Positions 47,238 to 50,704 of a stretch of 55,806 nucleotides of DNA are shown in pieces. The DNA comes from a virus. Taxonomy: Duplodnaviria > Caudoviricetes. Position numbers and translations under genes: made by a program. The first letter of the stretch is position 1; every line of letters begins with the position of its first letter. The notes under the pieces were generated by a model. It worked only from the letters and a program-made list of their open reading frames with translations. It had not been told where the DNA came from and ran no database searches. The stretch lies in the IMG/VR virus record IMGVR_UViG_3300037780_000011, positions 1-55,806 of that record. One strand, written 5' to 3'.

Positions 47238-47720
47238 TTGGTTGGTGTAAACGTAACTGTAACAGGAAACACTGTTCAGGCTGAAATTGATCTTATCGAG
47301 TCTGACATTAGGGAACTGAAAAAAGAAGTCCTCACAGGCTTGGCAAGAATAATTTCAGAAAAAAGCCCTGTAGACAGCGGAACATACGCTGTTAGCCATG
47401 AGGTGTCGGCTGGAAGCGGCATAACCGGCGGAACAAGATCAAGAAGCCCAAATGCTAAAAGAGTAAGTAAGGGTGGCGTTGCCCAATATCCAAACGCAAA
47501 ACAACAGGGCTTTCAGAACATGATTGGTGCAATCAACAGCATCAGCATGGATTCAAACAGTTTTGTGATAAGTAATCCAATGGATTATGCAGCACTTATT
47601 GAAGCTGGAGTATATGGTTTGAAAACTGGAGGTAAACCACCTCCCTATGCTTCCGCAATTCGTGAGGCGCCCAGTATCATTGAGCGCGTTGCACAACAGA
47701 TCGCCGCGAGGAACCGCTAA
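47238..47720 (+). CDS. Tail completion protein (HK97 gp10-like)
   Basis: SPVDSG...NPMDYAALIEAG. Confidence 0.7.
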   Translation: MVGVNVTVTGNTVQAEIDLIESDIRELKKEVLTGLARIISEKSPVDSGTYAVSHEVSAGSGITGGTRSRSPNAKRVSKGGVAQYPNAKQQGFQNMIGAINSISMDSNSFVISNPMDYAALIEAGVYGLKTGGKPPPYASAIREAPSIIERVAQQIAARNR

Positions 47721-48127
47721 TGCCCATCATGAACGACATCCGCGCAACGCTTGACGGTGCCTTGGCTGATTTGTCCAACCTACCGCCTATCGCGTTTGAG
47801 AACGCGCCATTCTCGCAGATCGCAGGATCGGCGCACCTGCGCACGTCCCTGTTCCTTACGTCCCGTCGCCCCGCCGTCCGTGGACCCAATCCGCAGCACC
47901 GCTATCAGGGCCTCTACCAGATCACCATTGCCACACCCACCGACATCGGGACGGGTGACGCCTTTGACTACGCTGACACGCTCATGGACGCTTTTGACGG
48001 CTCCACAGACATCATCGGTGACGCCGCCACTGTCTCCATTGAATACGCAGAACTCGGAACGCAGGTGTTTTCTGATCCGTTCTACCTGCTTCCGGTGCAG
48101 GTTGGGTGGTATGTGTATAGTGATTAG
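47720..48127 (+). CDS. Tail terminator protein
   Basis: IAFENAPF...GLYQITI; position before the tail tube gene. Confidence 0.75.
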   Translation: MPIMNDIRATLDGALADLSNLPPIAFENAPFSQIAGSAHLRTSLFLTSRRPAVRGPNPQHRYQGLYQITIATPTDIGTGDAFDYADTLMDAFDGSTDIIGDAATVSIEYAELGTQVFSDPFYLLPVQVGWYVYSD

Positions 48128-48153
48128 AAAGAGGGACGCCGAAGCGCCCCTCT
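48126..48153 (-). terminator. Terminator of the TIGR operon
   Basis: Minus strand AGAGGGGCGC-TTCG-GCGTCCCTCT-TTCT. Confidence 0.75.
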
Positions 48154-48154
48154 G

Positions 48155-48202
48155 AAGTGTGACTCGCGCGCTCTGGTTTACTCATGAAGCGTGGTCACAC
48201 TT
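48155..48202 (-). ncRNA. TIGR-type guide unit 5 (overlaps the tasA stop codon)
   Basis: AAGTGTGA-CCA-CGCTTCATG-AG-TAAA-CCA-GAGCGCGCG-AG-TCACACTT. Confidence 0.85.
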
Positions 48203-48962
48203 TTCTCCAAGCCAAAGTCAAATCCTTCAGCAATTCTTTCGTCATGTAGCGCATGGCGCGGTTGTGGGCGTGTCCTTTTGAGATGTCGCGCGCCAACTCG
48301 TATTCCTTTCGCTTATCATAGATAATACGATACCGTCCAGCGTTTTCATCTTTGCCTTGCGCCTTCAATAGCGGGTCAGCGATATTCCAGAACACCGAAC
48401 GACGCTCCGGGCTGTATCCATGTTCTAGTGCGGCTTCGCCCGCCACACGACGTTGACGACCTCCGTTGATGACAGCAAGCCCAGCCCGCTTCCACACACC
48501 CGCAACGGACGGGTAAACAGACAAGTCTCCGCACTCAGCGACAGTCTTTGCGAGAGCAAGCGCACCGAAACCCTTGATAGATTCCGTGAACGGATAGATC
48601 GGAACCTGCTTGCCAAGTTTCTCAAGTTGACGCTCGTATGACTTGCGTTGCTGTTCAAGCGGATCGCGTGCCATCAGAAGCGGCGCGACAGCCAGAGCCT
48701 CCGGGCCATCATAACCCTTGCCGATTGCGCCATAGAGTTTGGTGGCTTCCTCCTTGCTGCCGCCACAAAGACGCCGAAGGACGGCCTGCGCTTGCAGGGA
48801 CAGCCTGGACTGTGCGCGCACCATGTCCTGACGAAGCCGCCATGTCTCAACGATCTGGATGATAAGGGGATCGGCAAAGCGCCGATCCCCCTCAAAGCGA
48901 GGCTCTCTAACAATGGACTTCTGGCATGGGGTGGCCTCGCTAAACTCAATAAGGTCTTTCAT
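48195..48962 (-). CDS. tasA: TasA-like RNA-guided DNA-binding protein (IS110/Nop-related, no nuclease domain)
   Basis: Coiled-coil segment then IKGFGALALAKTVAECGDLSVYPSVAGVWKRAGLAV and GHAHNRAMRYMTKELL. No N-terminal DEDD RuvC domain and no SG catalytic loop. Flanked by dual-spacer stem-loops; AAGGAG RBS. Confidence 0.8.
   Translation of the reverse strand: MKDLIEFSEATPCQKSIVREPRFEGDRRFADPLIIQIVETWRLRQDMVRAQSRLSLQAQAVLRRLCGGSKEEATKLYGAIGKGYDGPEALAVAPLLMARDPLEQQRKSYERQLEKLGKQVPIYPFTESIKGFGALALAKTVAECGDLSVYPSVAGVWKRAGLAVINGGRQRRVAGEAALEHGYSPERRSVFWNIADPLLKAQGKDENAGRYRIIYDKRKEYELARDISKGHAHNRAMRYMTKELLKDLTLAWRKV
48896..48941 (-). ncRNA. TIGR-type guide unit 4 (inside the tasA coding sequence)
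   Basis: AGCGAGG-CCA-CCCCATGCC-AG-AAGT-CCA-TTGTTAGAG-AG-CCTCGCT. Confidence 0.8.
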
Positions 48963-48983
48963 GTGTATCTCCTTTTATTAACC

Positions 48984-49027
48984 TTGTGACTACGTTTTTT
49001 TGGGTGACTGTCATTAGGTGGTCACAA
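48984..49027 (-). ncRNA. TIGR-type guide unit 3
   Basis: TTGTGA-CCA-CCTAATGAC-AG-TCAC-CCA-AAAAAACGT-AG-TCACAA. Confidence 0.85.
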
Positions 49028-49036
49028 AGTATGGGT

Positions 49037-49107
49037 TTTCAGGGTTTGGTGTGGCTTGAATCCGTTGGTTTCCAATCGGCGGTTGGCTCACTCTCCAAAC
49101 CCTGAAA
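49037..49107 (-). ncRNA. TIGR-type guide unit 2
   Basis: TTTCAGGGTTTGGAGAGTGAG-CCA-ACCGCCGAT-TG-GAAA-CCA-ACGGATTCA-AG-CCACACCAAACCCTGAAA. Confidence 0.85.
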
Positions 49108-49111
49108 CTAT

Positions 49112-49165
49112 TGCGTGGTTGGCTAATTCCTGGCGGATTGCTTCACCCCATTGGCCAACCACGCA
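49112..49165 (-). ncRNA. TIGR-type guide unit 1
   Basis: TGCGTGGTTGG-CCA-ATGGGGTGA-AG-CAAT-CCG-CCAGGAATT-AG-CCAACCACGCA. Confidence 0.85.
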
Positions 49166-49170
49166 GCGGC

Positions 49171-49659
49171 CTAAGCCGCAACTCTGACCGCTTCCAAGTC
49201 GTCCGGTTTGAACGCCTCGGCCACGGTCTGTTTTTCTGTCATCTTCTCGGCAACGATACCGAAGAAGCGCGCCTTGTCGGCCATGTGGTCCGACATCTTG
49301 CTATAGTAGTCGCGTTCATCAACGACTTCTTCCTTCATGGCATCCCCGAGACGCTTACCGGAACGCAAACGCATATCCATGATTGTCAGGCTGTTGATCT
49401 GCGCCAAGACTTTCGCGCGTTCATCCGGCGCTACTGGACGTTCCCAGTTTGCAACAGTCTTGTTCCAGATGTTCTTTCGCTGTCCGCGCTTTGCGTCACC
49501 GATAAGACCATTAACAACGGACCATTCATGCGGCTGCATGACGGCGCGATACAATGCGCGGTCATTTTCCATCATCCGCAACATATTCTCACATGCTTGT
49601 TTGACGCTATCCGCACCATCCCAAGCTGCCTCAATGGCTTCTTTCACGTTCATGCTCAA
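49171..49659 (-). CDS. Uncharacterised helical protein, first gene of the TIGR operon
   Basis: 162-aa ORF; the AGGAG RBS favours the ATG at 49653; between the promoter and guide unit 1. Confidence 0.8.
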   Translation of the reverse strand: MSMNVKEAIEAAWDGADSVKQACENMLRMMENDRALYRAVMQPHEWSVVNGLIGDAKRGQRKNIWNKTVANWERPVAPDERAKVLAQINSLTIMDMRLRSGKRLGDAMKEEVVDERDYYSKMSDHMADKARFFGIVAEKMTEKQTVAEAFKPDDLEAVRVAA

Positions 49660-49681
49660 CTCCTAACGAATCGCAAAGCCA

Positions 49682-49711
49682 CCCAACCACACTCCCAACC
49701 GATTCGTCAAG
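49682..49711 (-). promoter_or_regulatory. Promoter of the CTTGACGAATC class (copy 4), upstream of the TIGR operon
   Basis: Minus strand CTTGACGAATC-N10-GTGGTT. Confidence 0.65.
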
Positions 49712-49789
49712 CGCGAATCACGACGTGTTGTTGCACGGCAACAGTCAACCTGATATTATCGCAACAACGATTTTATCTTGGAGACTGTC

Positions 49790-50704
49790 ATGGCGTTCGC
49801 CCAGGGATCACGTAGCGCATTGGCCGTAGGTGTAGAAGGCACGTTCGGAACGGAAGCCTCCTCCTATGACCTTGTTCCCATCAAGACCCATTCGCTTGAT
49901 CTGACGAAAGAGCGCTTGCAAGGCATGGACATTCAGGCGGACCGTATGCCGCGTGTCAGCCGTCACGGGAACCGCCAAGCCGCAGGGTCCATCGAAGTTG
50001 ACCTCCGCATGGGGAACTACGACGACTTCCTTGAATCGGCCATGCTGTCCACCTTTGACAGCAACGATGAAATGACCATCGGCACTACGCCGAAGTTCCT
50101 GACTATCGAAGATCGCCTCGCGGACATTACGCAGTATCGCCTGTTCACCGGCATGGCTGTATCGACCGCCACGTTCAGCATCGCGCCGAACCAGATGGTC
50201 AACACCACCTTTGAAATGGTCGGCAAGAACGCATCCATCAGCGGCACGCCTAAGTCTGCATCTGCTGCTACCACCAACACCCCATTTGACAGCTATAACG
50301 GCTCTATCTACGAAGGTGGTGTCGGCACGTCTGACCTGATCGAGATTGTCACTTCGGTTGAGTTCAGCATTACCAACTCGTTCGCACCTACTTTCGTGAT
50401 CGGTGACGACACCGCTCCGCAACTTGAATATGGCCGGTCGATCATCGAAGGCACCATGACGGTGTATTTCGAGGATGCGACTCTTATCAACAAGTTTCTC
50501 AACGAGACTGAGAGCGAATTGCAAGTTAGTGTCGCGGAACCCGGTGGGACCAACCCTTACACGTTCTACTTCCCGCGCATCAAATTTAACGGTGCATCAG
50601 TTCCCCTAGCAAACGAACAGTCCCGCACAATTGAACTGCCATTTGAGGCACTCCATGACAGCGTAGAAGGCACCCAGATGCTTCTCACGCGCTCGTCCGC
50701 CTGA
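49790..50704 (+). CDS. Major tail tube protein
   Basis: MAFAQGSRS...RHGNRQAAGSI...FLNETES; GGAG RBS; upstream of the chaperones and tape measure. Confidence 0.9.
   Translation: MAFAQGSRSALAVGVEGTFGTEASSYDLVPIKTHSLDLTKERLQGMDIQADRMPRVSRHGNRQAAGSIEVDLRMGNYDDFLESAMLSTFDSNDEMTIGTTPKFLTIEDRLADITQYRLFTGMAVSTATFSIAPNQMVNTTFEMVGKNASISGTPKSASAATTNTPFDSYNGSIYEGGVGTSDLIEIVTSVEFSITNSFAPTFVIGDDTAPQLEYGRSIIEGTMTVYFEDATLINKFLNETESELQVSVAEPGGTNPYTFYFPRIKFNGASVPLANEQSRTIELPFEALHDSVEGTQMLLTRSSA

Follow-up and report, generated by a model that had tools for sequence, protein, structure and literature searches.

Guide units at the tasA locus

The DNA considered here, referred to as the window, spans 55,806 bp and is a complete viral record (IMG/VR record IMGVR_UViG_3300037780_000011) bounded by direct terminal repeats. 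On its minus strand it carries tasA, a gene for a Tas protein, together with five candidate guide-RNA units of the stem-loop TIGR type, three of which (units 1-3) lie in the 5' leader of the gene, one (unit 4) within its codons 8-23 and one (unit 5) across its stop codon (Table 1). A first-pass annotation made from the letters alone had placed unit 4 in the tasA frame behind an AAGGAG ribosome-binding site and the ATG at 48962, had described a perfect 10-bp hairpin at 48866-48890, and had drawn the 5' stem of unit 5 from the AAA-GTG-TGA end of the gene. All of these elements are present, and the placement of unit 4, which starts in codon 8 and ends one base into codon 23 of the open reading frame (ORF) at 48195-48962, is correct to the base.

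Table 1. Features of the tasA region of the window (free energies are of predicted folds, with z-scores)
Feature	Position	Strand	Description
Unit 1	49113-49164	-	10-bp stem; second box C is CCG; one-mismatch match at 49123-49154; -27.2 kcal/mol, z -5.1
Unit 2	49040-49104	-	10-bp outer stem plus inner helix; first box D is TG; one-mismatch match at 49055-49086; -28.2 kcal/mol, z -6.0
Unit 3	48981-49030	-	9-bp stem including G-U pairs; exact pattern at 48990-49021; last unit before the ribosome-binding site
AAGGAG ribosome-binding site	48969-48974	-	6 nt before ATG 48962
Unit 4	48896-48941	-	AGCGAGG / CCA-ccccatgcc-AG-aagt-CCA-ttgttagag-AG / CCTCGCT; exact pattern; stem of 7 bp plus box C:G pair
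Hairpin	48864-48892 (10-bp core 48866-48890)	-	codons 24-33, encoding (E)GDRRFADP(L)
tasA	48195-48962	-	255 aa; coiled coil and Nop-like RNA-binding domain, no nuclease domain
Unit 5	48155-48202	-	exact pattern; 8-bp stem; -18.6 kcal/mol, z -4.6
Terminator-like hairpin	48130-48153	-	GC-rich hairpin followed by UUUCU; -19.4 kcal/mol, z -5.8; not flagged by consensus scan
ORF162	49171-49659	-	conserved gene of no assigned function directly upstream of the array
Tail-terminator gene	47720-48127	+	PF13554 (E 4e-12), PHROG 179; bounds the minus-strand cassette region
Next plus-strand gene past the cassette	49778-50704	+	other boundary of the minus-strand region

All five units lie on the tasA strand and share the format stem, CCA-N9-AG-N4-CCA-N9-AG, stem, that is, two 9-nt spacers, each with a box C (CCA) and a box D (here AG), joined by a 4-nt loop and closed by stems of 7-10 bp. 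The exact pattern occurs three times in the window (units 3, 4 and 5), always with a flanking stem of at least 6 bp, against a mean of 0.11 exact matches in 300 dinucleotide shuffles. A chance origin of the pattern is excluded, because all three observed matches are flanked by a stem of 6 bp or longer and not one shuffled match is. Allowing one mismatch raises the count to 10, where 3.43 would be expected; five of these matches cluster on one strand (48163-49154) and the other five are scattered. The stems fold as predicted, both singly and in the context of the 321-nt leader (z -6.1), and unit 4 matches the consensus of the other four units exactly. The marks of stem-loop TIGR arrays as described by Faure et al. 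(2025) and Xu et al. (2026), namely two spacers of about 9 nt, boxes C and D, and a palindromic stem of at least 5 bp, are found in all five units. Box C is CCA in nine of the ten half-units and CCG in the tenth, box D is AG in nine and TG in one, and AG still supplies the conserved G to which the C of box C pairs. An AG box D also occurs in relatives (locus L012, 2252-2338, and part of locus L001, 3845-3888). A comparison of 48000-49300 with Rfam returned no matching family. Unit 2 is unlike the others in having extra nucleotides between its outer 10-bp stem and its boxes, and its spacers pair together in the predicted fold.

The Tas protein

The product of tasA matches the PDB sequence of 9mty (phmmer, E-value 6e-12), and its AlphaFold2 model (predicted local distance difference test score, pLDDT, 84) contains only helical coiled-coil and C-terminal RNA-binding domains. 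The best Foldseek match of this model is again 9mty, 'TIGR-TasR in complex with tigRNA and target DNA' (E 5.6e-7, TM-score 0.61), followed by five TasH entries (including 9w02 and 9w04), then by the IS621 and ISCro4 recombinase complexes, and then by Nop5, Nop56 and Prp31. Among family databases, PHROG assigns the protein to PHROG 4285, labelled 'transposase' (7e-21), and Pfam gives only a sub-threshold match to PF02371, the IS110 C-terminal domain. The protein combines a coiled coil with a Nop-like RNA-binding domain and has neither HNH nor RuvC; its length of 255 residues and the lack of a nuclease domain make it a TasA as Faure et al. (2025, PMC12045711) use the term. The best explanation of these features is a nuclease-less, Nop-domain, RNA-guided DNA binder. 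Relatives number 496 at E ≤ 0.001, and in most of the 120 that are listed about 89-90% of the query is aligned, the unaligned part in the multiple alignment being the N-terminus. A search of species-representative genomes for TasA relatives found none.

Unit 4 in the reading frame

The ATG at 48962 is the sole in-frame ATG, GTG or TTG upstream of W41, the next in-frame start being M47. In an alignment of 26 sequences, residues 26-46 are conserved and R28, P32, W41 and Q45 are invariant. Since ATG 48962 is the only in-frame start before these conserved residues, unit 4 must be translated, with translation beginning upstream of it as the first-pass annotation had supposed, and it encodes residues 8-23 of a disordered N-terminal tail. 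In the TasA model, residues 1-26 have no secondary structure (pLDDT 43 and 50 for the first two blocks of ten) and helices run from residue 27 or 32. Unit 4 therefore has the two properties of an intragenic tigRNA, being an in-frame unit within a tas ORF and falling in a disordered region.

Translation through the unit restricts its spacers chiefly at one position, as the last base of each spacer must not be T, because T followed by the box D AG would read TAG. The proposal of the first-pass annotation that stop-codon avoidance constrains spacer evolution is correct in that the constraint is real, but the constraint is mild, as 46% of random spacer pairs are free of in-frame stops in the unit 4 frame.

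Spacer turnover among close relatives

The first-pass annotation had put forward, as a check, whether orthologs have a hypervariable N-terminus in which the unit pattern is retained. This is what was found. Proteins that are 91-94% identical differ at 8-9 of the 10 residues encoded by the spacers and loop, compared with 7-16 of the 245 residues elsewhere, and the boxes and stems are kept. For the window and its relative P0001 the figures are 9/10 at positions 11-20 and 7/245 elsewhere. Over six full-length sequences (the N-terminally truncated P0122 and P0126 being excluded), all 10 columns vary at positions 11-20, compared with 26 of 245 elsewhere. With spaces bounding residues 11-20, the N-termini read MKDLIEFSEA TPCQKSIVRE PRF in the window, ...FGEA IYTKMPNTME PRF in P0001, ...FSEA TLSKTPTSHQ PRF in P0123, ...FCEA KNTQIPNEIV PRF in P0125 and ...FSEA DVETKPIIEQ PRF in P0002. 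At the protein level, residues compatible with the boxes are kept: Q, K or T at codon 14 (xAG or xCG), S or P at codon 16 (xCC), I, N or T at codon 17 (Axx), and E, Q or V at codon 20 (xAG or xTG). The sole exception is the D of P0002 at codon 11, which implies CCG. A second sub-clade (the P0003 and P0004 clusters) has two variable blocks of three residues split by E-[TSNA]-[HQ], a spacing that matches the one predicted from the order spacer, box, loop, box, spacer.

DNA comparisons give the same picture. A 211-nt contig from run X3, covering 48781-48991, has 20 differences and two gaps relative to the window; among the 15 differences that are listed, seven fall in spacer B (48905-48913), two in the loop and three in spacer A (48923-48931), with none in a box or stem, and both gaps are in the spacers or loop. 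Translated, spacer B and the loop of this contig give 'MPNTME', as in P0001. A contig from run X2 has both spacers of unit 2 replaced, and its change at position 49074 turns the deviant box D of that unit from TG into AG. In related contigs the spacer part of unit 5 is skipped or replaced. Spacers thus vary between relatives of the window and boxes and stems are kept, as in stem-loop arrays in general. This natural variation is evidence that the embedded unit behaves like a live guide, its spacers being swapped without breaking the frame, the boxes or the stem.

Several further observations concern how units and half-units are exchanged. An X2 contig has 165 other letters, a gain of 57, in place of window positions 48909-49018 (from the middle of unit 4 to unit 3), which suggests that close relatives differ in how many units they have and in what these contain. 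The protein P0132 joins the spacer-A block of P0003 with the spacer-B block of P0131, and the B spacer CGAATGTAG is found with two unrelated A spacers (loci L069 and L089), so that half-units can, from these sequences, apparently recombine. Independent assortment of A and B spacers as a general rule was considered and rejected as too thin, since, of 149 distinct B spacers, a single one is paired with two unrelated A spacers at the DNA level. P0005, which is 74% identical to the window TasA, shares at residues 20-24 the 'IVRE' that spacer B encodes in the window and differs in the spacer-A block; judging by these residues, the two may have a half-guide in common. The idea that window spacers recur in other loci was also discarded, as the only two one-mismatch matches in context (unit 2 with L038, and with L026/27) are about what chance would give by a rough estimate.

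Start-codon classes in related loci

The fetched set comprised 95 loci (9 viral, 80 metagenomic and 6 re-fetched viral, L091-L096), of which L001-L089 were used for counts. Start classes were assigned to the 78 distinct loci with a W-x-x-RQD motif, five loci without the motif being excluded. In most of these 78 homologous loci a simple scanner finds the same kind of unit beside the tasA gene.

In the first class (62 loci) the ATG lies 16 codons before W41 and the whole array is in the leader. In the second class (8 loci including the window) the ATG lies 40-42 codons before W41 with a motif resembling a ribosome-binding site ahead of it in all eight. A relaxed scan finds the embedded unit in four of these (the window, L012, L021 and L022), three more (L001, L020 and L023) carry one with variant boxes as judged by eye, and L017 has no recognisable embedded unit. 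The third class (8 loci) has long open frames, with 3-10 units in frame in six of them (L013-15, L016, L019 and L044). The last leader unit of the first class is flanked by GAGG-CCA ... CG-CCTCGC, the same flanks as those of unit 4 in the window, and therefore a unit at the equivalent position belongs to the leader RNA in one clade and is coding in another. In the arrays of the third class (L013:173-1396, L014:212-1435, L015:339-1562, L044, L019 and L016), 102-182 open codons precede W41, an ATG with a motif resembling a ribosome-binding site stands just before the first unit, and the frame is open though the spacers differ between loci.

Function of the embedded unit and alternative explanations

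Taken as a whole, the cassette is probably a phage-encoded stem-loop TIGR-TasA system in which ORF162 is followed by three guide units, by tasA and by a further guide unit, all oriented against the tail genes. Unit 4, embedded in tasA, is probably a working guide that is matured from, or bound on, the tasA transcript. One transcript would carry units 1-3, the ribosome-binding site, tasA with unit 4, and unit 5. A single transcript is favoured because units 1-3 abut the ribosome-binding site without a gap, and it is further supported by the terminator-like hairpin after unit 5 and by the result of a sigma-70 consensus scan, in which no promoter-like site was found between ORF162 and tasA. At its target, TasA would repress transcription, by analogy with MbTasA.

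Cleavage at the base of either stem of unit 4 would separate the ribosome-binding site and codons 1-7 from the remaining ORF, and a TasA dimer bound to the unit would lie 21 nt past the start codon. Because cleavage or a bound dimer at unit 4 would be incompatible with translation of that molecule, maturation or binding of the unit and translation may be alternative fates of one mRNA, giving negative feedback on TasA and tying together the amounts of protein and guide, a proposal that has slightly less in its favour than against it. More doubtful is an extended form of the model, in which each tasA mRNA is either translated, with the ribosome melting the unit, or made into guide 4, with TasA silencing the message, so that the locus would act as a TasA-sensing switch that fixes the ratio of protein to guide. 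In this family the start codon appears to have moved back and forth across the units (leader in 62 loci, coding in 8, in-frame arrays in 6), and the hypervariable peptide would be a by-product of spacer turnover. The trinucleotide CUU stands at three 3' stem bases (those of unit 4, the hairpin that follows it and unit 5) and at one 5' stem base (that of unit 3); units 1 and 2 lack it. CUU at stem bases has been proposed as a processing mark by Xu et al. (2026), and its placement here may be a weak hint in that direction, only weak because there are 22 CUU in 1,061 nt.

Several points weigh against a guide made from the tasA transcript. The promoter scan used a sigma-70 consensus, which a phage or internal promoter could escape, and intragenic tigRNAs could have separate promoters according to the available passages of Xu et al. 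(2026, bioRxiv 10.64898/2026.09.09.750476). None of the 24 listed sequencing runs is RNA. The TIGRFinder box sets are CCA, CGA, CTA or CAA for box C and TG or CG for box D, and the predicted AG box D of 9/10 half-units is outside the latter. No spacer pair has a target in the window's own genome at two or fewer mismatches, apart from an artefact at the unit 3 locus, in a search of both 9+9 arrangements with gaps of 0-2 and up to four mismatches, within which the spacers of unit 4 have no match at all. Viral contigs were scanned for exact matches to spacer A followed by the reverse complement of spacer B, an arrangement deduced from the '8-nt 3' overhang' and 'C-5 rule' wording in the available text of Faure et al. 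(2025, PMC12045711). Unit 4 had 0 matches, and the 14 found for unit 5 were judged to be chance, as they lie in unrelated contigs of 58-70% GC with only the pattern in common. The invariance of boxes and stem in the X3 contig rests on 15 listed of 20 differences, and a change there is possible among the others. In L001, whose TasA is 72% identical to that of the window, the embedded unit has two deviant boxes (GT and CCG), and therefore embedded units may decay. Finally, 62 of the 78 related loci start translation after the last unit, and embedding is therefore not required for the system to work.

It is unlikely that unit 4 is a real guide made from RNA other than the translated mRNA, be it transcribed from an internal or alternative promoter or drawn from a separate pool of transcripts, with the overlap reflecting compaction without regulation. 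Xu et al. (2026) leave this open for intragenic tigRNAs in the text available, phage genomes are compact, and the 62 loci without overlap agree with it; however, the only promoter-like site on the minus strand of 48000-49800 is at chance level and lies within the coding sequence at 48349-48322, downstream of unit 4, and the gapless junction of units 1-3 with the ribosome-binding site again favours one transcript. Less probable still is that the unit has been captured and is decaying, no longer a guide, in which case it would either persist as selectively neutral coding sequence in a disordered tail or serve purely as a structure in cis, for example a translational operator. The deviant boxes of L001, the lack of a recognisable embedded unit in L017 and the tolerance that a disordered tail could have for any sequence agree with decay, but neutral drift cannot change 9 of 10 residues while the other 245 differ at 7, the replacements respect both copies of box C, both of box D and the stems as they do in working arrays, and unit 4 equals the consensus of the four other units. 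Hardly to be credited is a start of translation downstream of unit 4, which would make the unit a plain 5' leader. Such a start would correspond to the ATG 16 codons before W41, with the last unit in the leader, seen in 62/78 loci, but the window has GGG at that place and no in-frame ATG, GTG or TTG between codon 1 and M47, and a start at M47 would lose the invariant R28, P32, W41 and Q45 and part of the helix at 32-65.

The artefact at unit 3 arises from its spacer A (CCTAATGAC), which is complementary at 7/9 positions to its own box D and 3' stem; because of this, the unit's own DNA scores as a 'target' with two mismatches. The self-complementarity may be a coincidence or reflect an alternative fold.

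Relation to known systems

Guides within tas genes are not new, as a preprint has already described intragenic stem-loop tigRNAs, for example in the TasA of Bifidobacterium longum (Xu et al., 2026, bioRxiv 10.64898/2026.09.09.750476). In the available passages of that work, the tigRNAs embedded in BlTasA were sequenced from pull-downs and TasA represses transcription; the intragenic tigRNAs, like unit 4, fall in disordered protein regions, and a link between guide maturation and Tas translation is suggested. The embedded unit of BlTasA is in the wedge loop, whereas those of the window are in the N-terminal tail and at the stop codon. Box D is TG or CG in the systems of Xu et al. and AG in the window, and the window locus is known from sequence alone. 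Hypervariability of the encoded peptide is seen for the window and is not mentioned in the available passages of Xu et al. What sets the window apart is its AG box D, the stop codon that unit 5 shares with the gene, a conserved hairpin and clear evidence from natural variation. Because box D is AG here, the locus suggests that motif-based finders restricted to TG or CG may miss part of this clade. The cassette is also suited to a direct test of the question raised in the text available from Xu et al., whether tigRNAs are processed from tas mRNA and control Tas translation. Explicit autoregulation by tigRNAs was not found in the literature searched, where the term was seen only in a reference list.

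A stem-loop TIGR array on a contig from the gut of Peromyscus leucopus resembles the window in having a nuclease-less TasA and sub-arrays around the gene, but has 13 units and no gene overlap described in the available text (Faure et al., 2025, PMC12045711), compared with 5 units in the window, of which 2 overlap the ORF. In function, the nearest analogue is the processing of its own mRNA by TnpB, whose omega (reRNA) guide overlaps the 3' end of tnpB, so that, as proposed here for unit 4, the guide is within the effector coding region and making it consumes the mRNA (Nety et al., 2023, PMC10278001). TnpB differs in its unrelated fold and guide architecture, in that the overlap consists of scaffold rather than variable spacer, and in having one guide per gene.

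The box C/D small ribonucleoproteins (with Nop5) and the IS110 bridge RNA systems share with the window the same Nop-like fold and two guide segments anchored by motifs of the box C/D kind. They act in RNA methylation or DNA recombination, and their guides are not known to be embedded in the protein's own ORF.

The codon 24-33 hairpin and the unit at the stop codon

The hairpin directly after unit 4 has the core GGGGATCGGC-gcttt-GCCGATCCCC, a perfect 10-bp stem that extends to 12 bp (-23 kcal/mol, z -5.2). It recurs with compensatory changes in L001 (AGAGGATCTG/CAGATCCTCT), L012 and L020/22/23 (GGGTCAGCA/TGCTGACCC), is weak in L017 and L021, and is lacking in all four short-start loci whose RNA was folded (L002, L006, L028 and L053). 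Between the window and L001, three base pairs are changed on both sides, one of which couples R27L with A30S. At the position of the hairpin, L013-16, L019 and L044 have a full unit with a stem of 12-15 bp encoding RF[VIA]DP. From these comparisons we infer that a former last unit has left its stem behind as this hairpin, apparently kept for a reason at the RNA level. Sequestration of the ribosome-binding site by the sequence after the hairpin was rejected, as it appeared in one minimum-free-energy fold only and the complement is not kept in L001 by eye.

In unit 5, the 5' stem AAGTGTGA, which pairs with TCACACTT, is formed by the last eight bases of tasA, including the stop codon. A cut at the base of this 5' stem would leave a non-stop mRNA, and a cut at the 3' base, where CUU stands, would keep the mRNA whole and give it a 3' stem-loop. 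Every protein of the window's TasA sub-clade ends in WR[KQN]V. L001 has a unit with the GTGTGA/TCACAC stem of unit 5 and other spacers; this unit starts 62 nt past the stop codon of the L001 gene. By eye, L001 and L012 have a comparable terminator-like inverted repeat after the last unit.

ORF162 and the genomic setting of the cassette

Between the two flanking plus-strand genes there are two minus-strand ORFs, ORF162 and the 255-residue ORF of tasA, and the complete cassette of ORF162, five units and tasA occupies about 1.5 kb. Relatives of ORF162 were found by tblastn on the same strand, upstream of the array, in 46/89 loci and across all three start classes (for example, L001:2353-2850, L012:624-1151 and L016:200-700). 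ORF162 had no match in Pfam, PHROG, PADLOC or Atlas. Its predicted model is all-helical (pLDDT 86), and a fold search with this model gave no significant match. ORF162 may supply an accessory or processing function to this TasA clade. The homologs of the window's tail-terminator gene and of the gene at 49778-50704 adjoin each other in L001, where the cassette is located elsewhere (window 47720-50704 compared with L001:1-3900). Because the genes that flank the cassette in the window adjoin in L001, this comparison of gene order suggests that ORF162, the array and tasA form a moron-like, movable cassette.

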